Shown here one piece after another: positions 1 through 33,140 of a stretch of 64,000 bases of DNA. The notes below the pieces were generated by a model that saw only the letters and a list, made by a program, of their open reading frames with translations, had not been told where the DNA came from and searched no databases. Made by a program: the position numbers and the translations under genes. The first letter of the stretch is position 1; each line of letters begins with the position of its first letter. The stretch is from assembly GCA_947629945.1 (NCBI GenBank), contig CANRFR010000002.1, positions 519 through 64,518 on the forward strand, written 5' to 3'. This DNA is from an uncultured Clostridia bacterium (lineage in GTDB: Bacteria > Bacillota > Clostridia > Oscillospirales > Ruminococcaceae).

Positions 1-158
1 ACAATATTCATTTCAAATTTCAAAATCATGTTTGACTTACTCACTACTGTTTGATTCTGTCAATACTTTTTGAAATTTGTACCTTTAAATATAGGGACCT
101 TAAATAAATCATGGTTAGAGCTTTAAGGAAGCACTGATTAAATCGGCGCTTCTTAAAA

Positions 159-19721: not shown

Positions 19722-20222
19722 TTAAAACCCGATGTATTCCAAAAACGACTTAAACCCTTTCTTAATTGAGCCCAAAAAGCCCTCGGAATCGTCTTTTTCG
19801 ACTTCAATCAGGCTCTCGGTATTCACGCTTATATATTTCTTCTGCGCCGAAGTGACCTTGTTCATTTGAAGATTGTTTTTCGCGTATTCCTCAATATATC
19901 CTATATTCGCCTTTGCGTCCAGCTTGCTTTGAAGAAGCGCGTTGTTTTCAAGTTCCTCGTTCAGCAGTTCCTGCTGCTCCGCGACAAGACGCGCGGTATC
20001 GTCTTTTTTCGTGTTGAACCAGTTTACCGCGAAGAACGCCGCGAACATTACCGCAATCGCCAAAAACGCCGTTATCTTCGTTCCGCTCTTTGAAAGCGAC
20101 GACGCGGGCGCCATACGGATCTTTCTCGCTTCTTCCTCTTTCTTGCGCTCCCTTTCGCGCCGCTCTCTGTCCGAATTATCGAACCGCGACAAATCGTACG
20201 CTAAATTATCGTCGTTATACAT
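19722..20222 (-). CDS. FtsL-like cell division protein
   Basis: Position after rsmH; single TM followed by a coiled coil; N-terminal LAYDL motif. Confidence 0.7.
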   Translation of the reverse strand: MYNDDNLAYDLSRFDNSDRERRERERKKEEEARKIRMAPASSLSKSGTKITAFLAIAVMFAAFFAVNWFNTKKDDTARLVAEQQELLNEELENNALLQSKLDAKANIGYIEEYAKNNLQMNKVTSAQKKYISVNTESLIEVEKDDSEGFLGSIKKGFKSFLEYIGF

Positions 20223-20235
20223 ACTTATCCCCCCT

Positions 20236-20368
20236 ATTTAAATAATTTCAAAATCTTGACTTTGATTTCTCGGTCGCTTCGCTCCCCCCGTTGCGCTTCA
20301 AAGTCAAGATCGATCAAAATTTTGCTTAGCGATAGCCCGGCAAAATTTTGACGTTTTTTGAAATTTAT
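20236..20368. repeat. Palindromic intercistronic element, family I, copy 1
   Basis: Near-identical to 31303-31429; outer IR AATTTCAAAA/TTTTGAAATT plus two internal hairpins. Confidence 0.9.
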
Positions 20369-20372
20369 CCGC

Positions 20373-21299
20373 TCATTCACGAACCTTTTTTATAACTCGC
20401 AGCTTCGCGCTTCTGCTTCTCGGATTGCTTTCCAGTTCTTCTAAAGACGGCGTTATCGGCTTTTTGCCGATAAGTTCGCCGCGCGGCTTCTTTCCGCACA
20501 CGCACACCGGAAACTCCGGCGGACAGGTGCAGCCCGTGCAGAACTCCTTGAATCTGTTTTTCACTATTCTGTCCTCAAGCGAATGAAACGTAATCACCGA
20601 CATCTTGCCGCCGATCTTCAGCCTGTTGAACCCGTCCGTCAGCGCCTTATCAAGCGCGTCAAGTTCGCCGTTCACTTCTATTCTTATCGCCTGAAAACTC
20701 TTTCGGCAAGGATTTTTCTCCCGCCTGTACGCCGCCGGAACGCTGCTTTTTATTATCTCTGCAAGTTCGCCCGTCCGTTCTATCGGCTTCAAAACCCTTG
20801 CTTTGACTATTCCCTCGGCTATCCTCGGCGCGAATTTCTCCTCGCCGTATTCATAAAGAACGCGCCTAAGCTCGTCCTCGGTATAATCATTCACGACGTC
20901 TGCCGCGGAAAGTCCCTCGCCGCTCATTCTCATATCGAGAGGAGCGTCGTTGTGGAACGAAAAACCGCGTTCCGCGTCGCCCAGTTGGTGGGAAGACACG
21001 CCCAGATCGGCGATAATACCGTCCAGCTTATCTATACCCAATTCATCCAAAACTTCATTTAATTCAATGAAGTTACGATTTACAAGCGTCACAGGCAGAC
21101 CCTTTAGCCGCCCCCCGGCAGCCTCGATAGCCTCCTTGTCCCTGTCGAAGCAGATAAGTCTCCCCCCCGAGAGCCTTTCCGCCAGCTCCAAGCTGTGACC
21201 GCCGCCGCCCGTTGTAAGATCCGCATAGACACCGTCCGTTTCCCCAAACGCGCCGTCCACCGTTTCCCTCAACAGAACCGTTGTGTGTCGAAAGTCCAT
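20373..21299 (-). CDS. rsmH: 16S rRNA m4C1402 methyltransferase
   Basis: HTTVLLRE, D.T.GGGGHS, DLGVSS.QL, RGFSF, PLDMRM, FQAIRIEVN, ITFHSLEDR, RSAKLR. Confidence 0.97.
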   Translation of the reverse strand: MDFRHTTVLLRETVDGAFGETDGVYADLTTGGGGHSLELAERLSGGRLICFDRDKEAIEAAGGRLKGLPVTLVNRNFIELNEVLDELGIDKLDGIIADLGVSSHQLGDAERGFSFHNDAPLDMRMSGEGLSAADVVNDYTEDELRRVLYEYGEEKFAPRIAEGIVKARVLKPIERTGELAEIIKSSVPAAYRREKNPCRKSFQAIRIEVNGELDALDKALTDGFNRLKIGGKMSVITFHSLEDRIVKNRFKEFCTGCTCPPEFPVCVCGKKPRGELIGKKPITPSLEELESNPRSRSAKLRVIKKVRE

Positions 21300-21718
21300 C
21301 AAATACCCAACTCCTCAGCCAATTTAGAGATATCTTCAAGAGAAGTTTGACTGTTATACTCTTCCCAGGCGGCTTTATCCCAGATCTCGGCGCCGTCCAC
21401 AAGCCCCACAACAACGACCTCACTTGTAATGTTCGCGTAACTGCGAAGTGCGCTCGGTATTGCAATTCTTCCTTGCTTGTCCGGCTCGACTTCGCTTCCT
21501 CCGCCTATCAAGAAACGCTCGATAGGCTTCGCGATCTTCGACGGCTTGCCGCGCAGGGAATCCTTCAAAGCTTCCCAGCTTTCGGCGGTATACACCGTCA
21601 AACACTTTTCGTTCAGGCTTTTGCAGATATAGAAATGTTCGCCGAACTCTTCACGCAGCTTCGCGGGGAAGTTCATACGTCCTTTGGCGTCAACGGTGTG
21701 TTCATACTCGCCGTACAT
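21299..21718 (-). CDS. mraZ: Transcriptional regulator MraZ
   Basis: GEYEHTVDAKGR..FP and DKQGRI.IP repeats; EIW motif. Confidence 0.96.
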   Translation of the reverse strand: MYGEYEHTVDAKGRMNFPAKLREEFGEHFYICKSLNEKCLTVYTAESWEALKDSLRGKPSKIAKPIERFLIGGGSEVEPDKQGRIAIPSALRSYANITSEVVVVGLVDGAEIWDKAAWEEYNSQTSLEDISKLAEELGI

Positions 21719-21738
21719 TTCTATATCCCCCCCTTTTT

Positions 21739-21895
21739 CAGTTGACAGTTTACAGTTGATAGTTGAGAGTTGTTAAGCGCTCCCGTAATTCAAAAGGTTT
21801 TCGCTCACGAATAATACGTTTCCCGCAAAGCGCGGGTGTTTCAATCCGCATAAGCCCCTAATAACTATCAATTGTCAACTGTACACTTTCAACTG
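21739..21895. repeat. Heptamer-bordered element: cagttga-type array and inverted tcaactg-type array
   Basis: Five units at 21739-21773 and five inverted units at 21861-21895 around an 87-bp spacer; abuts the mraZ RBS. Confidence 0.85.
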
Positions 21896-22027
21896 TTCCG
21901 TCCTCCTCAGACGGAAATTTCGTAGATCACATATTTTCCCTATGTATCGGTAATAAGGTGAGATTTTATATTTTAGTGAACTTTTCACCCCGAGAGTGAA
22001 ACAATTCACCCTCTTTACCCACTTTTA

Positions 22028-22056
22028 ATTATAAACCACTTTTCCTTTTTTTTCAA
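22028..22056 (-). promoter_or_regulatory. SigA promoter of the dcw cluster, overlapping GTGG (MraZ-box-like) motifs
   Basis: TTGAAA-17-TATAAT on the minus strand; GTGG at 22036-39 and 22019-22. Confidence 0.75.
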
Positions 22057-22120
22057 GTGTTATTTGTGTTTTTTAAGAAAAATTCGGAATAAAGTTTTGT
22101 TCATATTTTTGTGCAATTTC

Positions 22121-22160
22121 AACAAAACAGCGCCCCGAAACTTCCGCTTCGGAGCGCAAA
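22121..22160 (-). terminator. Probable terminator of the polyamine operon
   Basis: gcgc(c/t)ccgaa...ttcgg(a)gcgc stem followed by a TGTTTTGTT tract on the minus strand. Confidence 0.6.
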
Positions 22161-22343
22161 AATTGTGCAATTTATCGGTATATGTTGAGTTAGCGTTGTA
22201 GAACCTTAACTACATCTTGGGTCGATCTTCGATCTGTTCATACGATTTGCGGCGCAGAACCTTAGTTTATTAAGTAAGAACCTAATAACGATATGTGGAA
22301 AACTTGTTGAAAATTTGTGCAAAACTTCCAATCGCCAATTTGT

Positions 22344-23615
22344 TCACTTTCCCGAGTTTTTCAGAAGTTCCTTTTTTCTCCGCTTTGCCTTTCCCCGCAG
22401 CTGCTGAACTCGCGCAATTTCGTACTTGCAGCCGCTGTCGTGAGGATCCTTTTGAAACTGCTCCAACGCAAGGTTGCAAAGCTCGATAACACGGTCGGGG
22501 TCGCCGTCCGCGTCGTCGAGAGCCTGCGCTTTATCACGGTAAACCATACCGATATCGTATACATTGTCGGGCGTGTGTTCCAAACGCAGCGCCAGTTCCG
22601 CTTCAAACATCTCGTTGCTCTTGTCATACTGCTTTGTTGCGGCGTAAAAGCCCGCCATCGTTCCGTAAAACTTTGCGAGCCTGTCAAAATCGCCGCTCCC
22701 TTTGATTATGCCGCCCGCTTTATCGTACCACTCGGCAGCTTCCTCCAAACGGTTCAGCGCCCATAAACAGCGTCCGACAAGTTTATAATGGTCGGAAAGT
22801 TCCAAATCGTCTGCATTAGTCTGCTCTAAGCGCTTGATTATCTCCAATTGGATGTCGAGAGCGTGAGCGAAATCGCAGTGCAGCGCGTTTCCGTAAAACT
22901 CCGCCTCAAACAGCGAATTCAATTCGTCGAGAGTAACGGTGGCAAAGCGTTCCGCCTTGCGCTGTTCGTAAGTCTTTCGCGTGACAACGTGCAAAAACGC
23001 CACGTTACCGCCGTCCTCGTCGTATTCCGCAATAAGAAACGCGCCGTTATCCTCGTCAAAATTTATCGAGGTATGCTGAGTGCTGCCGCCCGACGGCATT
23101 ATAAGGGAACGCTCCGCGCCGTGTTTTTTCAGCACAGCGTCGATCTCCGCGCCTTGAAACAGAAACTTGTCCGAGCTTTTAAACAGCGCCGACACAAACA
23201 TAACGCTCATCAGCCCGTCAAGCGTTACTCCGTCTGACGGTCCCCAATGTACCATACGGTTTTCGTCGTCGATCTCGCCGAACGCAATATCCAAATCCCG
23301 AGTACCGAGATCTATTCCGACGAACATCTTATCCGAACCGATACTCTCTGCCGTGCCGATCGCCATAATATGTACTTCGCCGCTGTCGGTCGACAAATGT
23401 ACCATACGTATACCGTCGGGGTGAAAAAAAGTTATCTGCCCCTTATTCATATCAAGATACGCATATTTTTCCAGAAACTCGCGCAGCGGCGCTGGAATAT
23501 CCAAGCCGCTCTGTTTCTTTGCTTTAATAAAGTCTCCGTTCCAAACTCCGTTATGTTCGCCGTCGTAGTACAGCTCCATAGCTTTGAGCGGCTCTATATT
23601 GTACAGTACAGCCAT
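22344..23615 (-). CDS. SMI1/KNR4 (SUKH)-like domain fused to TPR repeats
   Basis: IPAPLREFLEKY motif; C-terminal helical repeats (LEEAAEWYDKA, YDKSNEMFEAEL); paralog of 23640-24287. Confidence 0.55.
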   Translation of the reverse strand: MAVLYNIEPLKAMELYYDGEHNGVWNGDFIKAKKQSGLDIPAPLREFLEKYAYLDMNKGQITFFHPDGIRMVHLSTDSGEVHIMAIGTAESIGSDKMFVGIDLGTRDLDIAFGEIDDENRMVHWGPSDGVTLDGLMSVMFVSALFKSSDKFLFQGAEIDAVLKKHGAERSLIMPSGGSTQHTSINFDEDNGAFLIAEYDEDGGNVAFLHVVTRKTYEQRKAERFATVTLDELNSLFEAEFYGNALHCDFAHALDIQLEIIKRLEQTNADDLELSDHYKLVGRCLWALNRLEEAAEWYDKAGGIIKGSGDFDRLAKFYGTMAGFYAATKQYDKSNEMFEAELALRLEHTPDNVYDIGMVYRDKAQALDDADGDPDRVIELCNLALEQFQKDPHDSGCKYEIARVQQLRGKAKRRKKELLKNSGK

Positions 23616-23639
23616 TTTAGTTCTCCTTCGCAAGTAAAA

Positions 23640-24287
23640 TCATAAGCCTTTCAAAAATTTCTCCGAGCTTAAAAAGAAGAACCTCGCCAATTCGCCGCCG
23701 TTAAACTCAGCCGCCATAAACGTACGCGTTTCCTCGGAAAAGCCGATAGAATATTCGCGGTGCAGAGCGGGATTGTTCTCGATTTTCTCAATATCGAAGC
23801 CGTTCTCGCGCAGCAGCTTTACGGCAAGCTCGGGGTCGTCGGCAGCCACTGCTCCGTCGGTTTTCATAATCAAATTAACCAGCATAACTTTAAACAGCTC
23901 GGTGAGCGTATCGTCGGAGGGCAGCAGCTGCGCTTGATTAGGCGTGATTTTCATAAGAAATACGCAAGGGTCGTTGGACGGCTCGTCCAACACCGTTATC
24001 TCGAACTCGCCCACTCGCCCGACGATAAGAAGCGGCAGCTCTTTATTATCCCCGTAACGGAAAATACGCTTCGTCATAATATTCGGATGAATAAAGCGCG
24101 GGGCGTCGGAAAGCCTGTTCACAGCCATATAGCCGTATTCGCGCAGAAATCTGTGCAAAACCGTCGGCAAAACAATAACTCGCGATTTAAGATTTGCCGC
24201 GAAATCATCTTCGGAAAATCCGTCGGTTTCTCCCTGATAAAAAATTTTCAGCGCGTCAAACGCGTCGAGATTATGCAGTACAGCCAC
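23640..24287 (-). CDS. SMI1/KNR4 (SUKH)-like protein
   Basis: LPTVLHRFLREYG motif; aligns by eye with the N-terminal half of the downstream gene. Confidence 0.55.
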   Translation of the reverse strand: MAVLHNLDAFDALKIFYQGETDGFSEDDFAANLKSRVIVLPTVLHRFLREYGYMAVNRLSDAPRFIHPNIMTKRIFRYGDNKELPLLIVGRVGEFEITVLDEPSNDPCVFLMKITPNQAQLLPSDDTLTELFKVMLVNLIMKTDGAVAADDPELAVKLLRENGFDIEKIENNPALHREYSIGFSEETRTFMAAEFNGGELARFFFLSSEKFLKGL

Positions 24288-24299
24288 CTTAAAAGCCCC

Positions 24300-25433
24300 C
24301 TAACTCAACCTTGTTTTAAAATTTTCGTAACCGAATTCTTTCAAAAGCGCAAGCTCTCCGTTTTCGCGCAGTAAGTAAATACTCGGCAAAGCCATGCCGT
24401 TGAACGTGTTGTTCTTGCACATTGAATAGATAGCCATATCCTCGAACACGAGCCTGTCGCCCTCGGAAAGCGCTTTATCAAACGAATAATCGCCGATGAT
24501 ATCCCCCGCGAGACAGGTGTTGCCGCCTAACCGATAAGTAAACTGCTTTTCGTTTGGCATTCCCGCGCCCCGAATATTCGGACGGTAGGGCATTTCCAAA
24601 ACGTCGGGCGCATGACAGGCGGCAGACGCGTCCGTTATCGCGATATTCATACCGTTTCGGAACGTATCGAGCACCGTCGTGACCAGATAACCCGCGTTCA
24701 GCGCGACTGCCTCTCCCGGCTCCAAATACACTTCAAAGCCGAATTGTTCCTTGGTGAAGCGTATTTCCTCGATAAGCAGCTCACGGTCGTAGTCGGGGCG
24801 CGTAATGTGGTGTCCGCCGCCCATATTCAGCCACTTTATTCTTCCGAAAAATTTTCCGAACTTCTTTGTGACTTCAACTATTGTTTCACAGAGCGGTTCT
24901 GCGTTTTGCTCGCAGAGCGTATGAAAATGCAGACCCTCAACTCCCTCGGGAAGTTCCGTTAAATTCGCGATAGTTGTTCCCAAGCGTGAAAACTCGCTGC
25001 AAGGGTCGTAAATTCCGTGCTCCTGCGTGGAGTATTCGGGATTTATCCGTATACCGCAAGACGCGCCCGCCGCCCTGTCCTTGAACTTTTCATACTGTCG
25101 AGCGTTATTGAAAACGATATGATTACAGATTTTCGCAATCTCGTCGAACTCCTCGTCACGGTAAGCGGGCGAGAAAATGTGGTTCTCCCGTCCGAAAGGC
25201 TTTGCCATTTCCTCGTAGCCGAGCCGCGCTTCATACAGACCGCTTGCGGTACAGCCGTCAAGATATTTCGCTATAAGCGGATAAGTTGCGAACGCAGAAT
25301 ACGCCTTCTGCGCGAGAAGTATTTTACAGCCCGCGCGTTTCTTCACGTCCGCAAGTATTTCCAGATTTTCCCTTAGCCGCCGTTCGTCAATGACGTAGCA
25401 CGGGGTTTTAACTTTTGTTATCCAATCAGACAT
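24300..25433 (-). CDS. nspC: Carboxynorspermidine/carboxyspermidine decarboxylase
   Basis: TPCYVID, LAQKAY (PLP Lys), GLHFHTLCEQ, NMGGGHHIT, LEPGEA, KNNTFNG. Confidence 0.95.
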   Translation of the reverse strand: MSDWITKVKTPCYVIDERRLRENLEILADVKKRAGCKILLAQKAYSAFATYPLIAKYLDGCTASGLYEARLGYEEMAKPFGRENHIFSPAYRDEEFDEIAKICNHIVFNNARQYEKFKDRAAGASCGIRINPEYSTQEHGIYDPCSEFSRLGTTIANLTELPEGVEGLHFHTLCEQNAEPLCETIVEVTKKFGKFFGRIKWLNMGGGHHITRPDYDRELLIEEIRFTKEQFGFEVYLEPGEAVALNAGYLVTTVLDTFRNGMNIAITDASAACHAPDVLEMPYRPNIRGAGMPNEKQFTYRLGGNTCLAGDIIGDYSFDKALSEGDRLVFEDMAIYSMCKNNTFNGMALPSIYLLRENGELALLKEFGYENFKTRLS

Positions 25434-25453
25434 TTGCGGCGCTCCTTAATTTA

Positions 25454-26404
25454 CTATCTGACTATCGCGTAAGCCATATACCCGCCGTACAGCGCGACCA
25501 AAATTCCGCCCTCAACGCGGTTTACAGTCTTGTTTGTACAGCAGAACACATAAGCGAGAGCAGAAATTCCCATAAGAATAATCAAATCGGTAAGTCCTTG
25601 CGCGTTGATATTCATAGGAGTAATTGCTGCGGAAGCCGCCAGTACGAATAGGATATTGAACACGTTAGAGCCGACAACGTTGCCCACAGCGATATCGCTC
25701 TCACCTTTTCTCGCGGCGACAATGCTCGTTACAAGCTCGGGGAGCGACGTTCCCACGGCGACTATCGTAAGACCCGCCAGCGTTTCGCTCATTCCCAAGC
25801 CGATTGCGATGGTTTTCGCGTTGTTTACGACCAACTCGCCGCCGATAACTATCCCCACAAGCCCCAAAATCGTGAATATTATGCTCTTCGGAAGACTTAC
25901 GGGCTTTGCGTTCTCGGGTTCGGGCTGACGGTTGTTTAATGCAAACGTTACTATCGAATACAAAAAGATACCGAGCAGAATTATCATAATAAACGCTTCG
26001 TTTCGGGAGATAACGTTGCTCTCGCCGCCGCCCAAAGCAGTATCAAACGCTGACAGAGCCAGAACTGCCGTTGCCACCAGCATAAACGGGAACTGCTTTT
26101 TGACTATCTCGCCGTCCACGCGCACGGGTTTTATCAGCGCGGCAATACCGAGCACTCCCAAGAGGTTGAACATATTCGAACCTATTACGTTGCCAACTGC
26201 GATATCGTTTGAACCGTTCACTCCCGCGATAATGCTTACCGCCGCTTCGGGAGCGGAAGTTCCCATAGCGACAATCGTAAGTCCAATGACGATTGACGGA
26301 ATTTTGAGCTTTCGGGCTATACCCGAACTGCCGTCAACGAAGATATCCGCACCCTTAACAAGCAAGACAAAGCCCACTAAAAGTAATACTATCGCTAAAA
26401 ACAT
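25454..26404 (-). CDS. Ca2+/Na+ antiporter (YrbG family)
   Basis: Duplicated alpha-repeats GTSAPE/GTSLPE and GNVIGSN/GNVVGSN. Confidence 0.92.
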   Translation of the reverse strand: MFLAIVLLLVGFVLLVKGADIFVDGSSGIARKLKIPSIVIGLTIVAMGTSAPEAAVSIIAGVNGSNDIAVGNVIGSNMFNLLGVLGIAALIKPVRVDGEIVKKQFPFMLVATAVLALSAFDTALGGGESNVISRNEAFIMIILLGIFLYSIVTFALNNRQPEPENAKPVSLPKSIIFTILGLVGIVIGGELVVNNAKTIAIGLGMSETLAGLTIVAVGTSLPELVTSIVAARKGESDIAVGNVVGSNVFNILFVLAASAAITPMNINAQGLTDLIILMGISALAYVFCCTNKTVNRVEGGILVALYGGYMAYAIVR

Positions 26405-26416
26405 CTCAATCTCCTT

Positions 26417-27622
26417 TTAGTCCACAAGAACCGGGTCTCTGTCCTCTTCCCAAGGCAAACCCCACTTATTGAGGTTCTCCATAAAAGGATCGGGGTCGAA
26501 CTCCTCAACGTTGAACACGCCCGGCTTCTTCCACAAGCCCTCCAGCACCATAGCCGCGCCTATCATAGCGGGAACTCCCGTGGTGTACGAAATAGCCTGT
26601 GAGCCGACTTCTTTATAGCACTCCTGATGGTCGCAGATGTTGTAGAGATAGTAATTCTTCGGCTTGCCGTCCTTTTTGCCTTGGAAAATACACCCGATAT
26701 TCGTTTTGCCCTTGGTTCTCGGACCGAGAGAAGCGGGGTCGGGGAGCACGGCTTTGAGAAACTGCAAAGGCACTATCTCTTTGCCCTCGAACATAATCGG
26801 CTCGATAGAGGTCATTCCAACGTTTTCAAGGCACTTCAAATGTGTAAGATAACTCTGCCCGAACGTCATAAAGAAACGTATTCTCTTAATTCCTTTGATG
26901 TTCAGCGCAAGGCTCTCCAATTCCTCATGGTGGAGCAAATACATATCCTTTTCGCCCACGCCTTTAAAGTTGTAAACGCGTTTTATCTCCATAGGCTCTG
27001 TCTCAACCCATTTGCCGTCCTCGATATAAGAGCCTTTCGCCGACACCTCTCTAATGTTTATCTCGGGATTGAAATTGGTCGCAAACGGATAGCCGTGGTC
27101 GCCGCCGTTGCAGTCGAGAATATCAATATAATTTATCTCGTCGAACTCGTGCTTTTGCGCGTAAGCCGAGAACACTCCCGTAACACCCGGGTCAAACCCG
27201 CACCCGAGTACTGCCGTGATACCCGCTTTCTCGAAACGCTCACGGTAAGCCCACTGCCATGAATACTCAAACTTTGCCGTGTCCTCGGGTTCGTAATTCG
27301 CGGTATCAAGGTAATCCACTTTGCACTCAAGACACGCGTCCATAATGTGCAAATCTTGATACGGAAGCGCTATATTCATAACAATCTCGGGCTTGTACTC
27401 CTTAATGAGAGCTACAAGCTCGGGAACGTTGTCCGCGTTTACCGCCGCCGTTGAGATAACGGTTTTTGTGGTCGGCTGAAAACGTCTTTTGAGCGCGTCG
27501 CACTTGGATTTCGTGCGGCTCGCTATCATAATCTCTCCGAAAACCTCGCTGTTTTGGCAGCATTTCGCGACCACTACGCTCGCTACGCCGCCCGCTCCGA
27601 TAATCATTGCTCTGTGTGCCAT
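26417..27622 (-). CDS. Carboxy(nor)spermidine dehydrogenase (saccharopine dehydrogenase family)
   Basis: IIGAGGVA, YLDTANYEP, GCGFDPGVT, FATNFNPEINIRE, QAISYTTGVPA; context with nspC. Confidence 0.92.
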   Translation of the reverse strand: MAHRAMIIGAGGVASVVVAKCCQNSEVFGEIMIASRTKSKCDALKRRFQPTTKTVISTAAVNADNVPELVALIKEYKPEIVMNIALPYQDLHIMDACLECKVDYLDTANYEPEDTAKFEYSWQWAYRERFEKAGITAVLGCGFDPGVTGVFSAYAQKHEFDEINYIDILDCNGGDHGYPFATNFNPEINIREVSAKGSYIEDGKWVETEPMEIKRVYNFKGVGEKDMYLLHHEELESLALNIKGIKRIRFFMTFGQSYLTHLKCLENVGMTSIEPIMFEGKEIVPLQFLKAVLPDPASLGPRTKGKTNIGCIFQGKKDGKPKNYYLYNICDHQECYKEVGSQAISYTTGVPAMIGAAMVLEGLWKKPGVFNVEEFDPDPFMENLNKWGLPWEEDRDPVLVD

Positions 27623-27651
27623 AGTTTTTTCTCCTTAATTAAAATAAAATA

Positions 27652-27716
27652 CGGTTATTGCCGCGCGAAGCGCAACCGAAATTGTCAACTGTACATTGTA
27701 CATTGTCAATTGTTCA
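27652..27716. repeat. Heptamer element with GCGAAGC mini-hairpin
   Basis: cggttat remnant, gcgcgaagcgc, then tcaactg tacattg tacattg tcaattg ttca; matches 33096-33140. Confidence 0.85.
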
Positions 27717-28361
27717 AATTCCGCTCATACTCAACGTATAGAGCACAAGCGCCAATAAACCGAGCGTCAAAATCAAGAAAATACCGCCCAATAATTTATT
27801 GCCGCCTTTACCCAAAACTCCGCTTCTGCCGCCGATAAAGCCGACCGTCACCAAGGCGGCAAACCCTATGCCGCAAAGTATTCGCAAACCGCCGAACTCC
27901 TTAAAACGCATATCTATATAATAATATGTGTTCAATTTCTCACCCGACGTTATTATGTTTTCGGCGAGGAGCTTGGAATTTATCGAACTTACTTCCGATG
28001 TTGCCTTATAATTCAACCGCGTTACTCTGCCTTTGATTTTCTGCGAACCAAGCATCGCTATGCCGCCGGAAAAGTTCTTTTCTATATAAGAGGGCTTCGC
28101 TCTTACAAGAAAAGGCGCTGCGCTGTTGTCGTTCGTCATCATAAGATAATAATGGTCGCTGCCCGTGGGAATTAGGTTTACGGAATGTTTCAGTTCAAGA
28201 ACCTCAAACGCGTAAACCGCAGTAAACTCGCAAACATCGCCCTTGTCTGCGCTGTTTATCGGCACGGAGCCGTTCTTCAAAAGCGCGGCTGCTCCCGAAA
28301 TCAAGAAAAACAACGTAAAGACGATCAAAATGATAAAGGCCGCTATAGATTTACGGGTCAT
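27714..28361 (-). CDS. Hypothetical membrane protein (N-terminal TM, two C-terminal TMs)
   Basis: ATG at 28361 after AAGGAG; hydrophobic termini. Confidence 0.7.
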   Translation of the reverse strand: MTRKSIAAFIILIVFTLFFLISGAAALLKNGSVPINSADKGDVCEFTAVYAFEVLELKHSVNLIPTGSDHYYLMMTNDNSAAPFLVRAKPSYIEKNFSGGIAMLGSQKIKGRVTRLNYKATSEVSSINSKLLAENIITSGEKLNTYYYIDMRFKEFGGLRILCGIGFAALVTVGFIGGRSGVLGKGGNKLLGGIFLILTLGLLALVLYTLSMSGI

Positions 28362-28422
28362 AAAATTCTCCTTGTGAATATAATTACGTCGTTGGTTTTC
28401 GTTTGCCAAACAAATGACCGTA

Positions 28423-28755
28423 TCAGTTTATCAGCAGCCCGATAATCGCGAACGTAAGCATAGCGACAAGTCCCAACAGCATACAAGCCCCGCCGATAGC
28501 AAGCGACTTGCGGCTCTTCAGCTTATCCACTCGCAATAACGTAAGCCCCGTTGCCAAAGCGGTAAGCAGCCCGAAAACCGCCGCCGTGATAAGAAACGCA
28601 AATCTTTTCGGATACTGCGCGGAAATCGTAACGCCGAGCACCACAAGGCTCAACGCAAGCAATCCCATTGCCGCCATAACCACGATTCCCGTCAGCTTAA
28701 CGGATTTGATTTGCATATTACGTTCTTCCTGTTCATTAAGTTCTTTATTTTCCAT
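28423..28755 (-). CDS. Hypothetical small membrane protein (3 TM)
   Basis: ATG at 28755 after AAGGAG; three hydrophobic segments. Confidence 0.7.
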   Translation of the reverse strand: MENKELNEQEERNMQIKSVKLTGIVVMAAMGLLALSLVVLGVTISAQYPKRFAFLITAAVFGLLTALATGLTLLRVDKLKSRKSLAIGGACMLLGLVAMLTFAIIGLLIN

Positions 28756-28771
28756 TTTTATCTCCTTAAAT

Positions 28772-29623
28772 TCATACTCTCCCCGCGAGCACATCGCGCA
28801 CATTGTTCGGGAGCGCAAAACAGCCGCTATGTACATATTGATTATAGTACTTTGTTTTAAGTCCTTGCGAGAGCCACCATTCCGCGTTTTGGTCTTTCAC
28901 GGGGTGGAATTTTTTCGAGGCGAACCCGAAAAGCCATTGTCCGCTCGGATAAGTCGGGATATGCGTCTGATACACCAGCGCTATGGGGAAAAAGCTCTTT
29001 ATACGCTCGTGGGCACGTTTCATCGCTTGCGCGTATTCGTCGTAGAACGTGCTCTCGTGCTGATTTACAAGTATTCCCGTATCGTTCAGCGCCTTGTAGC
29101 AATTGCCGTAAAACTCCTTAGTAAACAAGCCCTCGCCCGGACCGAACGGGTCGGTACTGTCAACGATTATCAGGTCGTATTCATTTTCGGCTCGGCGAAC
29201 GAATTTAAGTCCGTCCTCATAGTGGATATGCACGCGCGGGTCGTCCAAAGAACAAGCCGTAAACGGCAGATATTCTCGGCACAATTCCACAACGCGCCTG
29301 TCTATCTCCACAAGGTCGATATGCTCAATGCTCTTAAAACGGCAAAGTTCGCGAACCGCGCCGCCGTCGCCGCCGCCGATAACAAGCACTCGCTTTATCT
29401 CGGGATTTACCGACATCGGAACGTGCGTAATCATCTCATGATAGATGTACTCGTCCTTTTCCGTCAGCATAAGAAAGCCGTCCAGAACGAGTATTCGCCC
29501 CAATTCCTCGCTGTCGAGTATGTCTATTTTCTGAAACTCGCTCTGCTCCGATACCAAATGCCGCTTTATTTTTATTGAGAACCGCACGCTGTCAGTGTGA
29601 TTTTCCGTAAACCAAAGTTCCAT
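28772..29623 (-). CDS. speE: Polyamine aminopropyltransferase (spermidine synthase)
   Basis: MELWFTE, LVLDG..MLTEKDE..YHEM, VLVIGGGDGG, IIVDSTDP.GP. Confidence 0.96.
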   Translation of the reverse strand: MELWFTENHTDSVRFSIKIKRHLVSEQSEFQKIDILDSEELGRILVLDGFLMLTEKDEYIYHEMITHVPMSVNPEIKRVLVIGGGDGGAVRELCRFKSIEHIDLVEIDRRVVELCREYLPFTACSLDDPRVHIHYEDGLKFVRRAENEYDLIIVDSTDPFGPGEGLFTKEFYGNCYKALNDTGILVNQHESTFYDEYAQAMKRAHERIKSFFPIALVYQTHIPTYPSGQWLFGFASKKFHPVKDQNAEWWLSQGLKTKYYNQYVHSGCFALPNNVRDVLAGRV

Positions 29624-29634
29624 TTTTTCTCCTT

Positions 29635-29752
29635 ATTTAAAAAAATTTGCAAACAGCTCTCTTCGCTGCGCTTCGTTCGCTAGCCGAGAGACATTGCCTT
29701 CGTTTCGCTGACGCTTCACTACGGCAACGTCTCTCGCTTTTGCAAATTTTAT
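29635..29752. repeat. Palindromic intercistronic element (family I-like architecture)
   Basis: Perfect 12-bp outer IR AAAATTTGCAAA/TTTGCAAATTTT; inner cgagagac-ttgcc/ggcaa-gtctctcg hairpin; gcttcg-rich loops. Confidence 0.8.
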
Positions 29753-29783
29753 GCGACCCAACAAGGTGGATTTTATTCAAGCT

Positions 29784-30236
29784 TTACACAGCCTTTTTCA
29801 GTTTGTCGTGATAAAATTCATACGCTTCCTTGCACAGTCTGTCGCCGTGCTCCTCCCAGAACGCGGTATTAGTCTCCATAAGGATATTTTCGTCCTCGTC
29901 CGTGAGGTAATCGAAAATGTCCGAATAGTAAGTAAGCCGCTCGTCCTCGCGAAACTTGTCGAACACGTCCGTGTAAGTTCCGTGGAGCAGCTCCAGAAGC
30001 TCCCGATACCCCATTCGCTGAATGCCGCGCATTGCGTACCAATAGCACTCATAGCCCCAATTGGTGAAGAACTGCTCGAAGCCGCCGTTGTACGTGTCCA
30101 CTACCAATTTCCAGAGCGCGGCTATCTCCTGTTCATCGGCGTCGAGCTTTTTCCAGTCGCCGCCGCAGTCGTATACCAGCTTTTTGTTGAACTCGCCCGA
30201 ATAATCGTCCCACAACTCGTCATAATCTTTTTCCAT
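29784..30236 (-). CDS. DUF4375/DMP19-like acidic protein
   Basis: EQEIAALWKL...YNGGFEQFFTN motif. Confidence 0.7.
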   Translation of the reverse strand: MEKDYDELWDDYSGEFNKKLVYDCGGDWKKLDADEQEIAALWKLVVDTYNGGFEQFFTNWGYECYWYAMRGIQRMGYRELLELLHGTYTDVFDKFREDERLTYYSDIFDYLTDEDENILMETNTAFWEEHGDRLCKEAYEFYHDKLKKAV

Positions 30237-30258
30237 TTTAAATTTTCACTTTCTTATG

Positions 30259-30672
30259 TCAAGATATAAAGGTTCCGTCATCGCCCATAGCCTCAAAATG
30301 TCTTCTGTAACGCTTTGGAATTCGAACATCCGAGAAATAACCGATGTCTGACAGAACTTCGGAAATAGCCGCAAATCCGTCGTTATAAAAGCGCGTAATA
30401 CGCCTTTTGCGGTCTGAAATGTTTTTATAGTCGGGCGGACAAACAAATGTCCAATCCGCGCTCTCATCGTCAACAATTATTCGGAAATATTTGTCAATTT
30501 CCGTTTCATGTACTTCACATTGAGCCAACAAAATATGATGTTCAAAAGCGTCGTCCACGCGCGCCATAAGCACGGGTTTCGTATCGTCAAACGGTATTGC
30601 GATAATCAGCGGCTCTTTTTGCTTGATGTATTTGTTTACGGTCTCTTCATCCGGAAATTTGAGGTAATTCAT
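30259..30672 (-). CDS. Conserved hypothetical protein (EHHILL motif)
   Basis: 137 aa ORF with GGAGG RBS; no family recognised. Confidence 0.7.
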   Translation of the reverse strand: MNYLKFPDEETVNKYIKQKEPLIIAIPFDDTKPVLMARVDDAFEHHILLAQCEVHETEIDKYFRIIVDDESADWTFVCPPDYKNISDRKRRITRFYNDGFAAISEVLSDIGYFSDVRIPKRYRRHFEAMGDDGTFIS

Positions 30673-30700
30673 ACTTCGCCTCCAAAAAATCTGTTTAACA

Positions 30701-31291
30701 CTATCTTCTCGGCGGTCTTGTAAGGTAACTCGGCTTTACAAACCACTTTATAAGCCGCGGAAACCGCTGCGCGTTACACATAACGTAAACGGAAACCGCC
30801 ACATAAATCAGCCATAACGCCGCAAATATTCCGCAAAATATCGAAACCGGACGCTTATCCTCGGCGTCGTGACGTTCCGCGTCCTCTTGCGAGAGCAGTT
30901 CCGTATTGTCGTAACGTATGCAAACGAGTTCGTCCTTAGCGGTAATCACGGAAAGGCTCTCGCCCTCTTTAAGCTTGTACAAACCCTCAAGGTCGCAAAC
31001 ACTCGCCCACGCCTTATATTCTTTGCCCGAAAGCGTGAGCACTATGCGGTCTTCCTTGCGGTAACTGCCCTCGTAAACCAAATTCGTCCGAACGTAGTCG
31101 CGCTTATGAAGCCCCATATTCATACACATTATCCACACGCCGACTATAAAAGCAAGGAGTATCACCCACACGGCAATAAATTCGCCCGGATAGTAAACGT
31201 TGCCGTTAAACAAGCGGCTTCGAGTGTTGTAAACGCGCATTTTGCGGCGGTAGTTGCGGTTTTTGGTGCGCGAGGCGTTTTTTCTGCCCAT
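30701..31291 (-). CDS. Hypothetical membrane protein (2 TM)
   Basis: AAGGAG RBS directly after the repeat element; two hydrophobic segments. Confidence 0.7.
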   Translation of the reverse strand: MGRKNASRTKNRNYRRKMRVYNTRSRLFNGNVYYPGEFIAVWVILLAFIVGVWIMCMNMGLHKRDYVRTNLVYEGSYRKEDRIVLTLSGKEYKAWASVCDLEGLYKLKEGESLSVITAKDELVCIRYDNTELLSQEDAERHDAEDKRPVSIFCGIFAALWLIYVAVSVYVMCNAQRFPRLIKWFVKPSYLTRPPRR

Positions 31292-31302
31292 TTCAGCTCC
31301 TT

Positions 31303-31429
31303 ATTTAAATAATTTCAAAATCTTGAGTTTGATTCTCGGTCGCTTCGCTCCCTGCGAACCAAACTCAAGACCGGTCAAAATTTTGCTTAGCGATAGCCCG
31401 GCAAAATTTTGACACTTTTTGAAATTTAT
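31303..31429. repeat. Palindromic intercistronic element, family I, copy 2
   Basis: Near-identical to 20236-20368. Confidence 0.9.
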
Positions 31430-31458
31430 GCGCCGCCAGTTAAGTTGCTCACGAAAAG

Positions 31459-32979
31459 TTACTCGACTACCTCCAAATACTCCACATTCATATCCTGAGG
31501 TCCCGTGAGCGAACAGCCTTTCTCCTTAGCGTATGCTATGTAGTCGAGAATATCCCGAGTAATACGCTCTCCGGGCGCGAGAATGGGAATTCCGGGCGGA
31601 TAGCACATCACGAACTCGCCGCAAACGCGCCCCGCAGTCTCGTTTATCGGCAATGATACGCGCTTAGCGTAGAACGCGGCTTGCGGCGGCATATCCACCG
31701 TGGGATTTATATATTCGTGGTCGAACAGCCCGACCGGAGAACGCCCGTAAAGCCGTTTTATCTCGGAAAGCGCCGACACCAGCCGCTCAATATCGAGCGC
31801 TCTGTCGCCGCCCGTGATTATCGCGAGAATATTTCCGATATCGCCGAACTCTATTTGAATATCGTACTCATCGCGCAGTAAATCATACACTTCAATTCCC
31901 GCCAAGCCCATAGCGCGCGTGTGAACGGACAGCTTCGTCGTATCGAACGCGTAAAAATCTCTGCCGTTGCAAAGCTCCGAACCGAACGCGTAATAGCCGC
32001 CTATTGCGTTAATTTCGCGCCGCGCGTATTCGGCGAATTCCACGGTTTTCGCGTAAAACTCCTTGCCGTGCAAAGCCAAATTCTGCCGCGCCAAGTCGAG
32101 CGACACCATTAAAAGATAACTCGCCGAAGTGGTTTGAGTCAGGTTAATTACCTGACGAACATAATCGGGATTCACCGTATCCGCCATTAACAAAATAGCG
32201 CTCTGCGTAAGCGAACCGCCCGTTTTATGCACGGAAGCCGCCGCCATATCCGCGCCCGCCGCCATTCCGTTTATCGGCAAGCCCTCGCCGAAATAGAAAT
32301 GCGTTCCGTGAGCCTCGTCGCACAACACCAAAAGACCGTGCCTATGCGCGATCTCAACGATCTTTTGTAAATCGGAGCAAATGCCGTAGTAAGTCGGGTT
32401 GTTCACCAAAACGGCTTTCGCATCGGGGTTTTGCACAATGGCAAGTTCCACTTCTTCAGGCATCATTCCGAGAGGTATACCGAGTTCTCCGTTCACCCCG
32501 GGATTTACGTAAACGGGAATCGCTCCGCAGACTACCAATGCGTTTATCGCACTGCGGTGAACGTTTCGCGGCAGAATTATCTTGTCGCCCGCCTTGCACA
32601 CGCTCATTATCATAGCCTGAACCGCGCCGGTAGCGCCGTTGACCATAAACAGTGAGTTTGCCGCTCCGAAAGCGTCCGCCGCCAATTCCTGAGCCTCTTT
32701 TATAACGGACACGGGATGGCACAAATTATCGAGCGGCTTCATGGAGTTCACGTCGTTTTTAAGCGCGCTCTCCCCCAGAAAGCCGGTAAGCGTTTTGTTT
32801 CCGCGTCCGCCCTTGTGCCCCGGAACATCAAACTTCACCACGCGGTTGTTCTGATACTCCCGCATAGCCTCGTAAAGCGGCGCGCGGTCTTGGTTCAATT
32901 GACAATTGACAGTTGACAATTGACAATTATTGAGCGAATCCCCAAGCTCATCGCTGTCTTTGTTATCTTTTAAGACCAC
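31459..32979 (-). CDS. PLP-dependent arginine/lysine/ornithine decarboxylase (class I/II fold)
   Basis: APLYEAM, FDVPGHKGG, PRNVHRS, DEAHG, SVHKTGGSLTQS, YPPGIP; likely GTG start at 32979 after GGGGG. Confidence 0.93.
   Translation of the reverse strand: MVLKDNKDSDELGDSLNNCQLSTVNCQLNQDRAPLYEAMREYQNNRVVKFDVPGHKGGRGNKTLTGFLGESALKNDVNSMKPLDNLCHPVSVIKEAQELAADAFGAANSLFMVNGATGAVQAMIMSVCKAGDKIILPRNVHRSAINALVVCGAIPVYVNPGVNGELGIPLGMMPEEVELAIVQNPDAKAVLVNNPTYYGICSDLQKIVEIAHRHGLLVLCDEAHGTHFYFGEGLPINGMAAGADMAAASVHKTGGSLTQSAILLMADTVNPDYVRQVINLTQTTSASYLLMVSLDLARQNLALHGKEFYAKTVEFAEYARREINAIGGYYAFGSELCNGRDFYAFDTTKLSVHTRAMGLAGIEVYDLLRDEYDIQIEFGDIGNILAIITGGDRALDIERLVSALSEIKRLYGRSPVGLFDHEYINPTVDMPPQAAFYAKRVSLPINETAGRVCGEFVMCYPPGIPILAPGERITRDILDYIAYAKEKGCSLTGPQDMNVEYLEVVE
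32896..32930. repeat. Heptamer array x5 inside the decarboxylase N-terminus
   Basis: caattga caattga cagttga caattga caattat, read as NNCQLSTVNCQL. Confidence 0.9.
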
Positions 32980-32997
32980 CGAAACACCCCCGTTATT

Positions 32998-33140
32998 CAA
33001 TGGACAATGGACAATTGACAGTTGACAATTATTTCAACGTCCCGACTTGCAGACAATCTAAATCGCGCGCGGGTGGACGCGAAGCGTCCACACTCGCAAC
33101 CAAAATTGTCAATTGTCAACTGTACTTTGTCAATTGTTCA
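32998..33140. repeat. Heptamer-bordered element with GTGGACGC-GAA-GCGTCCAC hairpin
   Basis: Array at 32998-33032, inverted array at 33102-33140 ending in the speD TGA stop. Confidence 0.9.

Follow-up and report, generated by a model that had tools for sequence, protein, structure and literature searches.

Layout of the element in the window

The window, a 64,000-nucleotide stretch of DNA from an uncultured Clostridia bacterium, contains two palindromes of about 130 bases. Copy 1 lies between an rsmH/mraW gene and the gene in the ftsL position, and copy 2 is flanked by an Orn/Lys/Arg decarboxylase gene and a gene for a protein of 196 amino acids (Table 1). We read the element 5' to 3' on the minus strand, since that strand encodes the genes here. 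An earlier note on this DNA had described both palindromes, and we found each where it had been placed, with its bases quoted correctly. The outer inverted repeat, AATTTCAAAA/TTTTGAAATT, occupies 20244-20253/20356-20365 in copy 1 and 31311-31320/31417-31426 in copy 2; both copies have the same second hairpin, TCAAAATTTTGC-loop-GCAAAATTTTGA, and the loop GCGAAGC is present on the minus (gene-sense) strand. The base-pair swap was also found as described: C20260/G20303 in copy 1 becomes G31327/C31364 in copy 2, and this pair belongs to hairpin B. The predicted folds have energies of -42.5 kcal/mol for copy 1 and -51.7 kcal/mol for copy 2. By nhmmer and covariance-model scores, the two copies are far beyond chance.

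Table 1. Coordinates of the element copies, their parts and the adjoining genes in the window
Feature	Position	Strand	Details
Copy 1, whole element	20240..20369	-	Three-way junction; covariance model R1 78.8 bits, E=1.3e-16
Copy 1, neighbouring genes	20373..21302; 19722..20222		rsmH/mraW gene; ftsL-position gene
Copy 1, P1 5' strand	20356..20366	-	RNA AAAUUUCAAAA
Copy 1, hairpin A	20312..20352	-	GUCAAAAUUUUGC / GCAAAAUUUUGAU, loop 14 nt
Copy 1, hairpin B	20254..20309	-	UCUUGACUUUGAA / UCAAAGUCAAGA, apical GCGAAGC
Copy 1, P1 3' strand	20244..20254	-	UUUUGAAAUU, then AUUUAAAU
Start of ftsL-position gene	20220..20234	-	GGGGGG ribosome-binding site 20229-20234, ATG 20220-22
Copy 2, whole element	31307..31430	-	R1 102 bits, E=2.7e-22
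Copy 2, neighbouring genes	31459..33000; 30701..31291		Orn/Lys/Arg decarboxylase gene; gene for 196 aa
Copy 2, P1 5' strand	31417..31427	-	
Copy 2, hairpin A	31374..31413	-	Stem and loop same as copy 1
Copy 2, hairpin B	31321..31370	-	UCUUGAGUUUGG / UCAAACUCAAGA, G/C swap relative to copy 1
Copy 2, P1 3' strand	31311..31320	-	
Copy 2, left-hand module	31430..31449	-	AGCAAC-N-GGCGGCGC, 3' of decarboxylase stop codon (31459-61)
Copy 2, conserved 3' border	31289..31309	-	UUUAAAUAAGGAG + spacer + ATG; ribosome-binding site AAGGAG 31297-31302, ATG 31289-91
Diverged subfamily copy	29640..29752	-	28.9 bits, E=2e-4 (covariance model)
Truncated or degenerate copy	12..81	-	33.7 bits, E=1.6e-5 (covariance model)

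The left-hand module seen beside copy 2 is common to many copies. Two further relatives were recognized in the window by the covariance model. The diverged subfamily copy has the usual borders (GCAUAAA ... UUUUUUAAAUAAGGAG), but its P1 is compensated, AAAAUUUGCAAA/UUUGCAAAUUUU. The degenerate inverted repeat reported earlier at 14-80 proved to be a real relative, though truncated to P1 and one short hairpin; it is not next to a ribosome-binding site, the nearest downstream one being about 95 nt away.

Fold, covariation and strand asymmetry

The copies all fold alike, into a three-way junction of an outer stem (P1), hairpin A and hairpin B. Terminal inverted repeats of 10-11 bp, AAATTTCAAAA/TTTTGAAATTT, are present in every strong copy, and P1 is the best-conserved helix, with six of its nine pairs invariant across 44 copies; covariation in P1 was seen in two subfamily copies. 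Among 44 distinct cross-species copies, compensatory double changes were found at 20 of the 26 model pairs, a count that was reached in 0 of 500 shuffles and that overstates independent events because the copies share ancestry. In this alignment, which had been fitted to the covariance model, 95.3% of cells were paired, compared with 22-49% in slid controls. These comparisons uphold the earlier proposal that the structure is maintained, and they show that the maintained form is a three-way junction of P1 (AAAUUUCAAAA/UUUUGAAAUUU), hairpin A and hairpin B. Predicted stability ranges from -40 to -60 kcal/mol; P1 and hairpin B, stacked one on the other, make up about 27 bp.

Several details recur across the copies. 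The apical loops are GCGNAGC with a variable N, GGAG or GGA occurs in nearly all loops, the foot of hairpin A is (C/T)GTC base-paired with GAC, and hairpin B keeps a G·U pair at its foot in 40 of 44 copies. Hairpin-A and hairpin-B types were found in all four combinations, and comparison among copies shows that the hairpin modules have been exchanged, making the family mosaic.

The mismatches are asymmetric, with 42 G·U against 5 A·C on the sense strand, and the sense fold is that of the more stable strand in 16 of 19 copies and in a second set in 43 of 43. This bias reads as selection on a single strand, and G·T pairs in one DNA strand would fit it equally. One alternative is a non-autonomous ssDNA transposon of the PATE, REP/RAYT or IS200/IS605 type, which we regard as unlikely. 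Here hairpins A and B would be subterminal hairpins read by an HUH/Y1 transposase on one strand, and the orientation bias would arise from the lagging-strand template rather than from mRNA. Consistent with this, both hairpins vary freely in stem sequence while their structure is kept, the mismatches are skewed to G·T on one strand, and the apical GCGNAGC matches the pattern of the d(GCGNAGC) mini-hairpin, which is established chemistry. However, the best-conserved helix is P1, whereas IS200/IS605-type ends have no terminal inverted repeat.

Distribution, placement and mobility of the family

A genome-wide nhmmer search detected many copies beyond the two, as expected of the dispersed element that the earlier note had suspected. 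This genome carries about 21 strong copies at approximately 16 loci (22 nhmmer matches at E<1e-13), and other MAGs examined carry from 14 to >143. The repeat unit is non-coding and about 105-135 nt long, with copies of 93-142 nt, and some copies form direct tandem arrays of up to four; the four-copy array, on C25, has a period of 124 bp. The family was found in 22 of 101 species of the host genus (Oscillospiraceae), with 1 to >140 copies each, and was absent from all 150 other genera of Oscillospiraceae searched (150/150). Apparently, this is an undescribed repeat family restricted to one genus of gut Oscillospiraceae.

At all of the roughly 16 loci in this genome (~16/16), the element lies between co-directional genes in sense orientation and abuts a ribosome-binding site. 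The upstream gene is co-directional and the next start codon lies 16-27 nt 3' of the element at every locus; the 3' border, UUUAAAU-AAGGAG, ends 6-8 nt from the next gene's ribosome-binding site or includes it. An identical layout was found in 26 of 30 copies from four other species. The flanking pairs are junctions within conserved housekeeping operons, are unrelated in function and include MraW(rsmH)|ftsL-position gene, SecY|Adk, Def|Fmt and SpoVAD|SpoVAC-type, among others. TAAGGAG precedes 79% of element-linked genes compared with 8% of background genes, and the A content of the spacer is 60% compared with 36%. The ribosome-binding site is predicted to be accessible, and stop codons occur in two to three frames within the last 30 nt, just 5' of it. 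At copy 1 and two other compared sites the ribosome-binding site is native, not donated; the GGGGGG site of copy 1 also occurs in relatives without the element. In G050 and G006, the core lies within a longer element that has other terminal repeats, occurs in both orientations and sits away from ribosome-binding sites, so the link to the ribosome-binding site is not intrinsic to the core.

The strict sense orientation, the fixed spot 5' of TAAGGAG, the mosaic modules and the limit to one genus had all escaped the earlier reader.

Fixed placement beside the ribosome-binding site would also be expected of a cis-regulatory leader RNA for a global factor, for example CsrA bound to GGA-rich loops and the ribosome-binding site, which would set translation of a regulon. 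We consider this very unlikely. The junction sequences and the G·U pair are conserved, GGAG or GGA appears in almost every loop, and a CsrA gene is present. However, the downstream genes have no function in common, their orthologs in congeners lack the element, copy number varies from 1 to >140 with species, tandem arrays reach four copies, and the long form occurs in both orientations. With Rfam 15, the window had no match at the gathering score, and five copies had no relevant match even at E<=1.

A transcription signal would surprise us even more, be it a portable promoter or an intrinsic terminator (or attenuator) formed by hairpin B and the AUUUUGAAAUUUUUU behind it. A U-rich run does follow hairpin B, and AAATTTCAAAAA elsewhere in the genome is an UP-element-like tract 5' of real TTGACA promoters. 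Against this, neither promoter-like nor terminator-like sites turned up in consensus scans of the elements; hairpin B has an AU-rich foot, and the U-run is taken up by pairing in P1. Moreover, termination would be harmful because elements sit within essential operons (dcw, spc, def-fmt).

Presence or absence of the element differs between related species at orthologous sites, as the earlier note had anticipated. The rsmH|ftsL junction is filled in G047 and empty in other congeners with a readable junction; where copy 2 sits, relatives read TAATG or TAAATG and lack any spacer. Several sites that are empty in this genome are filled in relatives, and one such empty site is an ATGA stop/start overlap. 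From these comparisons of orthologous sites, we conclude that the sites to which the family has spread differ from species to species. TAAAT occurs on both borders in 9 of about 15 copies, without per-copy co-variation. When copy 1 is compared with G009, where the site is empty (GGATAAAAAGGGGGGG), the sequences are consistent with a TAAA(T) duplication, the relatives being only ~80-88% identical.

For the ssDNA transposon, TAAAT would be a target and cleavage motif in the left flank and at the right end, and both borders carry it; the core in G050, which is not tied to genes, is still strand-asymmetric. On the other hand, replication orientation alone leaves the gene-sense, ribosome-site-abutting loci (~16/16) unexplained. 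A RAYT/HUH partner, which the earlier note had envisaged, was not found in six element-bearing genomes, all MAGs: Y1_Tnp (PF01797) had zero matches in G000 and G047-G051 while control genomes were positive, a result that weighs against an ssDNA transposon and is not proof. This genome also contains no IS-sized pair of terminal repeats. Of the earlier REP/MITE idea, dispersal, maintenance of structure and presence/absence differences stand, and the RAYT/HUH partner is unsupported. Each outcome that the note had named as refuting its idea was contradicted.

A probable mobile repeat in operons and its known counterparts

The reading that we favor, and hold to be somewhat probable, is a mobile non-coding repeat of bcr1/MITE-like type that persists in operons by bringing or preserving a ribosome-binding site; it is for this reason that the element would survive there. 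The element would be co-transcribed with its operon. In the RNA runs, about 10% of the region was represented, by short contigs, and they showed no molecule ends. Insertions would survive because transcription continues, ribosomes reading into the element are terminated, and the next cistron gains a strong ribosome-binding site that is exposed amid AU-rich sequence. At junctions with a former stop/start overlap, the new site would replace translational coupling. In the transcript, the very stable junction probably serves as a barrier to decay, or as a site of RNase III-type processing, so that the cistrons before and after it meet separate fates. The DNA may be mobilized in trans through its P1 terminal repeats at a TAAAT-like target; alternatively, it may move by recombination at the stop-codon/ribosome-site junction.

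A bolder possibility, distinctly unlikely in our judgment, is that the short form spreads itself as an intercistronic cassette, homing specifically to the stop-codon/Shine-Dalgarno junctions of operons and insulating the transcript. No classical transposase would be needed for homing, which could use, for example, recombination or an RNA-templated step. If this were true, the element would be a natural insulator that combines a decay barrier with a ribosome-site donor and frees gene pairs from translational coupling, so that each gene is initiated independently.

As a mobile repeat, the element resembles several known systems in part. Like classical MITEs, it is small and non-coding, with terminal inverted repeats and presence/absence at orthologous sites; unlike classical IS-derived MITEs, no autonomous IS with the same ends was found in this genome, itself a MAG. 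It shares with REP/BIME sequences an extragenic palindrome, often between co-directional genes, and the (C/T)GTC foot of hairpin A recalls CGTC/TGTC-tagged REPs, which also lack a transposase (PMC3733652). However, a REP is one 20-40 nt hairpin whose GTAG/CGTC tag is unpaired, and REPs are mostly inverted dimers and are unreported in Firmicutes, whereas here the tag is base-paired, the three-way junction exceeds 100 nt and the arrays are direct.

In Correia/NEMIS, ERIC and BOX repeats, which are co-transcribed with their neighbors, the terminal inverted repeats pair with each other in the mRNA; BOX has mosaic modules, and these repeats have been proposed to affect the processing and stability of mRNA (PMC3184786). 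The element has similar MITE-like terminal inverted repeats, and its mosaic modules recall BOX. Those repeats occur in both orientations at variable distance from genes, and several come with a duplicated TA and a candidate IS partner, whereas in our element orientation and distance are fixed, and a partner was not found. Neisseria REP2 and Borrelia IR-A, of 120-180 bp, have two internal stem-loops and a ribosome-binding site directly upstream of ORFs (PMC3184786). The ribosome-binding site within the repeat, immediately upstream of ORFs, is a shared feature; REP2 lacks terminal inverted repeats and includes both a promoter and an ATG, whereas the present element has a strong terminal stem, no visible promoter and a location inside operons.

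MIRU repeats lie between operon genes, in operon orientation and in direct tandem arrays, and their insertion at a stop/start junction keeps the next gene expressed (PMC3184786, PMC12548453). Our element is likewise intercistronic, operon-oriented and found in direct tandem arrays. MIRUs are not strongly palindromic and carry a small ORF that couples translation through stop/start overlap, whereas the element has stops in two to three frames, a Shine-Dalgarno site and a stable three-way junction. Finally, bcr1 of the Bacillus cereus group is a non-coding Firmicute repeat of ~100-155 bp, at 11-130 copies per genome, with no conserved genomic distribution, no known transposase, TTTAT borders and a 'cruciform-like' RNA fold of two independent stem-loops with compensatory changes (PMC3184786, PMC6542083). 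Both repeats have two stem-loops kept by compensatory changes, a variable copy number and an AT-rich border pentanucleotide. By its description, bcr1 is restricted to the B. cereus group, whereas this element belongs to one genus of Oscillospiraceae and is therefore not classed by us as bcr1, has TAAAT borders instead of TTTAT and, unlike bcr1, is strictly gene-sense and intercistronic, 6-8 nt from a TAAGGAG ribosome-binding site.

Anatomy and strand-specific fold of the element

The earlier note described two palindromic elements in the window, and both were borne out with positions and bases exact. The compensatory swap of C20260/G20303 for G31327/C31364 was confirmed in the sequence, and the flanking genes agreed with the intercistronic placement claimed for both copies. 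Because the genes of the region are on the minus strand, we read the element on that strand. A covariance model found a diverged and a truncated copy as well. Just left of the window (contig C2:343-441 of the source genome, G000) and about 95 nt downstream of the truncated copy is a 32-codon ORF with its own ribosome-binding site, encoding an Asn/Gln-rich peptide (MSNQNNQNNQNNQNQKQNQ...).

Copies of the element in the window
Feature	Position	Strand	Context	Basis
Copy 1	20240-20369	minus	between the MraW/RsmH gene and a 166-aa gene at the ftsL position of the dcw cluster	
Copy 2	31307-31430	minus	between the Orn/Lys/Arg decarboxylase gene and a 196-aa gene	
Diverged copy	29640-29752		borders unchanged, outer stem P1 compensated	covariance model
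Truncated copy	12-81			covariance model

In the sense direction, the element begins with an optional left module, GCAAC-N7-9-GGCGGCGC, followed by AU and the 5' strand of an outer stem, P1 (AAAUUUCAAAA). The linker AG(U/C), hairpin A (GUC...GAC) and the linker CGG come next, and hairpin B (UCU...AGA, with an apical GCGNAGC) leads into the P1 3' strand (UUUUGAAAUUU). Beyond P1 are a U-rich stretch, UAAAU, AAGGAG, 5-8 nt and the ATG. Left-module tandem units of 41-45 nt (..CGCTGCCGTAAAAGCAACAAACCGGCGGCGCATAAATTTC..) were also observed upstream of some copies, at C24:4730-4880 and C55:6352-6420 of G000 and at locus L126 of the relative G047, each unit being able to fold into a hairpin rich in GC, in which the sense strand has a U·G pair.

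All full copies fold as the same three-way junction of P1, hairpin A and hairpin B, at -37 to -60 kcal/mol, and two decayed copies reach about -21. RNAalifold on 19 G000 copies returned 26 pairs, 9 of which had compensatory changes. We then considered 44 distinct copies from seven genomes and found 95.3% of cells paired and changes on both sides in 20 of the 26 pairs; because the copies share ancestry and their alignment was fitted to the model, these are not event counts. None of 500 shuffles reached any of five measures, and sliding the partner by 1-3 columns left pairing at 22-49%. The covariation effect is very large despite the model-fitted alignment and the relatedness of the copies, in support of the earlier proposal of an element maintained for its structure. 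P1 itself covaries in two subfamily copies, the diverged copy of the window (AAAAUUUGCAAA/UUUGCAAAUUUU) and one on C26 (AAAAUUUGAGAA/UUCUCAAAUUUU), and the stems of hairpins A and B each come in several versions that are unrelated in sequence. Hairpin A has two main types, as does hairpin B, and every one of the four possible pairings is present; thus the copies recombine, as BIME or BOX mosaics do. The elements that three species have in front of a FlhB-C-like gene, at an orthologous site, differ in their hairpin modules but share one fold.

The mismatches are heavily biased to one strand. In G000 the sense strand has 42 G·U versus 5 A·C mismatches, the antisense fold has 17 and 15, and tandem G·A/A·G mismatches are on the sense strand as well. 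Of the two folds, the sense one was the more stable in 16 of 19 G000 copies and in all 43 copies taken from other genomes (G·U, 93 versus 24), and 40 of 44 copies retain a G·U pair at the base of hairpin B. We conclude that selection acts on one single strand, which could be RNA or single-stranded DNA. DNA tolerates G·T and sheared G·A pairs too, so the strand bias fits both. The main rival explanation is a relic of a single-strand-DNA transposon read by an HUH enzyme, as the GCGNAGC loops and the strand bias would suggest. We consider this unlikely, given the strong terminal stem and the failure of the RAYT/HUH partner envisaged in the earlier note to appear: PF01797 (Y1/RAYT) gave no hit in six element-bearing genomes, all of them MAGs. 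An IS-sized pair of the terminal repeat was likewise not found in G000.

Candidate identities were also compared with this anatomy. Rfam gave no relevant match to the element at the gathering score and E<=1. A hammerhead-type ribozyme was rejected on its linkers (AGU and CGG, with none between hairpin B and P1), the missing CUGANGA/GAAA core and the absence of an Rfam match. An integron attC site was rejected as well, since the copies occupy housekeeping-operon sites outside an integrase context and have no GTTRRRY at the right end.

Copy number and position in operons

G000 is a MAG of 2.75 Mb in 206 contigs. We counted 22 copies at E<1e-13 with nhmmer, plus several fragments, and 21 with the covariance model. 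These copies make up about 16 loci, among them direct tandem arrays on C25 (four copies, period 124 bp), C72, C24/C102 and C133. Because the repeats break the assembly, leaving some copies at contig ends, the count may be an underestimate. Per orientation, the P1 10-mer has about 40 occurrences where 3.9 are expected, an excess explained in part by UP-element-like tracts preceding ordinary promoters; many solo AAATTTCAAAAA matches in G000 are such tracts before TTGACA promoters.

At every G000 locus a start codon lies 16-27 nt downstream of the last copy, and the nearest upstream gene is co-directional. The flanking pairs are unrelated to one another, with textbook operon junctions among them, and include MraW and the ftsL-position gene, SecY and Adk, Def and Fmt, SpoVAD and a SpoVAC-type protein, a carboxyltransferase and a biotin carrier, a GlmU-like protein and an isochorismatase, and DUF624 and PurA; plsX, ychF and an ABC ATPase gene are also downstream of elements. 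We rejected a regulon because the downstream genes are unrelated, and we regard a CsrA-type regulatory leader as improbable, even less likely than the HUH-read relic.

TAAGGAG precedes 79% of element-linked genes versus 8% of 1549 background genes, and A makes up 60% of the stretch between it and the start codon, versus 36%. Folding predictions leave the ribosome-binding site mostly unpaired and the P1 3' strand paired, and the final 30 nt of the elements contain stop codons in two or three frames. The G000-type layout recurs in 26 of 30 copies from four other species, the exceptions being internal array members or copies with extra sequence between element and ribosome-binding site. The short form, which is the operon-dwelling repeat of G000, is restricted to the stop-codon/ribosome-site junction of operons, in sense orientation. 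Scans with promoter and terminator consensus sequences found no such site inside the elements, and a transcription signal is a very remote explanation, also behind the HUH-read relic.

Upstream of the copy at an SPFH gene (L017:1641-1780, on C55 of G000) we observed an AT-rich palindrome of about 140 nt (CTGCAGCTTATGCAG...), whose Rfam matches are plant miRNA at chance level only. Public RNA runs cover about 10% of the region, with contigs that break inside elements at 20314 and 20341; these reads have neither molecule ends nor clean empty-site joints at either copy and are uninformative. Two public runs have contigs in which 30229 is connected to 30702 by 20 different letters and the 137-aa gene (30259..30672) is missing, pointing to a related organism that has the operon minus that gene.

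Distribution, filled and empty sites, and a longer form

Exact-pattern matching against 185,579 species genomes located the element in several animal-gut Oscillospiraceae/Ruminococcaceae MAGs. With the covariance model, it was present in 22 of 101 species of the genus and in none of 150 other genera of the family, with a ceiling of about 35 on the copies counted in any one genome. Counted free of that ceiling, five genomes hold at least 143, 68, 17, 14 and 4 copies.

Presence/absence differences between relatives, a prediction of the earlier note, were found at orthologous sites that are filled in some species and empty in others. In G047, the closest relative found, the rsmH-ftsL junction is filled, with an element 92% identical to that of G000 versus 80-84% for flanking coding DNA. 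The readable rsmH-ftsL junctions of other congeners have no copy of the element; the gap there is often no more than 10-30 nt, and unrelated palindromic inserts are present in a few. These other inserts (L069 in G011, L070, L076-L078) are about 150-190 bp with ends like ..CAGACTGTATA.., making the junction a repeated landing place for more than one repeat family. At the copy-2 site, the decarboxylase stop codon of relatives abuts or overlaps the next start (TAAATG, TAATG), and in G047 an additional small ORF separates the decarboxylase gene from the 196-aa gene, so the 167-nt spacer with AAGGAG is peculiar to G000. The reverse also occurs: several sites are empty in G000 and filled in relatives, one of them an ATGA stop/start overlap in G000.

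The ribosome-binding site is native in some of these pairs. That of copy 1 is GGGGGG with and without the element, and two other filled/empty comparisons (cases A and i) agree. It looks brought in at copy 2 and in cases ii, iv and v, where the family TAAGGAG and A-rich spacer are unlike the empty site. One "empty" G000 site (C6:18195-18223) looks like a deleted remnant, CATAAAGTTAAAAAGCGTC...GACC...AAAATTAAGGAG. Most copies have TAAAT at both borders, a pentamer without per-copy co-variation. The empty site of the relative G009, GGATAAAAAGGGGGGG, fits what a putative TAAA(T) target duplication would predict for copy 1; at about 80-88% identity, the relatives are too diverged to place the junctions exactly.

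In G050, a mouse-gut MAG, and G006, the core is contained in an element of about 190 bp with unchanged inner borders (..GGCGCAU / core / UAAAUAA..) and outer inverted repeats CAGNCTGTATANAAAGG. The CAGNCTGTATANAAAGG motif occurs 185 times in G050 versus 0-2 times in controls. These long-form elements occur in either orientation, sit between convergent genes and keep no proximity to ribosome-binding sites, and therefore the ribosome-site link is a property of the short form and not of the core. One of them (L154, G050) has an identical 20-bp hairpin sequence (CCGCACATAGCTTGTGCGGT) on either side, which looks like a duplicated terminator-like target.

A second repeat family of G000, outside the window, begins CAGTCTGTATAAAAAGTCGGTTATAAAAAA...GGTCAACCTCATTGAGTGG with G-rich sequence after it (C10:34405, C15:29365, C40:19092, C50:14654, C58:7874, C86:134, C109:98, C137:6586 and C155:5332). 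It always starts directly behind a GC hairpin that resembles a terminator, and many of its copies are at contig ends. The family shares its end motif with the outer repeat around the three-way-junction core of G050.

Interpretation and comparison with known families

Taken together, we conclude that the element is a genus-restricted, mosaic, evolutionarily mobile repeat with a single-strand fold under selection. We are highly confident that the family is mobile or was formerly so. The element would be co-transcribed with its operon, and could be tolerated because it stops any translation that runs into it and offers a ribosome-binding site that is strong and exposed. The stable junction, with P1 stacked on hairpin B (about 27 bp), would probably act as a decay barrier or RNase III-type site, which may uncouple neighboring cistrons in stability and translation. 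That the RNA fold measurably affects the operon is a tentative suggestion, with the odds slightly against it. The whole model, a mobile operon repeat tolerated through ribosome-site presentation with its fold as a barrier or processing site, is the one we moderately favor.

The family is an unusually clean case, with one orientation, one position relative to the ribosome-binding site, classical junctions (mraW-ftsL, secY-adk, def-fmt), many natural filled/empty pairs among the species of a single genus, and a core that also leads a second life within a longer element bounded by terminal inverted repeats. It makes testable the tolerance of mobile elements inside essential operons, the rewiring of translational coupling, and the reading of the fold as RNA or single-stranded DNA. 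As a practical point, such repeats break MAG assemblies and can pass for regulatory RNAs.

Small, structured repeats are long familiar, with bcr1, BOX and REP2 as examples going back decades. Closest in kind to the element is bcr1 of the B. cereus group, a repeat of about 155 bp in 11-130 copies with a TTTAT border motif, a mobility mechanism that is unknown, and a cruciform-like RNA fold whose two stem-loops are kept by compensatory changes (PMC3184786, PMC6542083). MIRU is similarly intercistronic, oriented and array-forming, and follows the same logic of inserting at the start codon with minimal harm, but it relies on a small ORF that is coupled (PMC12548453). Neisseria REP2 likewise lies upstream of ORFs and bears a ribosome-binding site, but it has a promoter and lacks terminal repeats (PMC3184786). 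A CGTC-tagged REP was rejected, the resemblance being limited to a tetranucleotide at the foot of hairpin A (PMC3733652). The element is a new family that unites traits of bcr1, MIRU, REP2 and REP and is a member of none of them.
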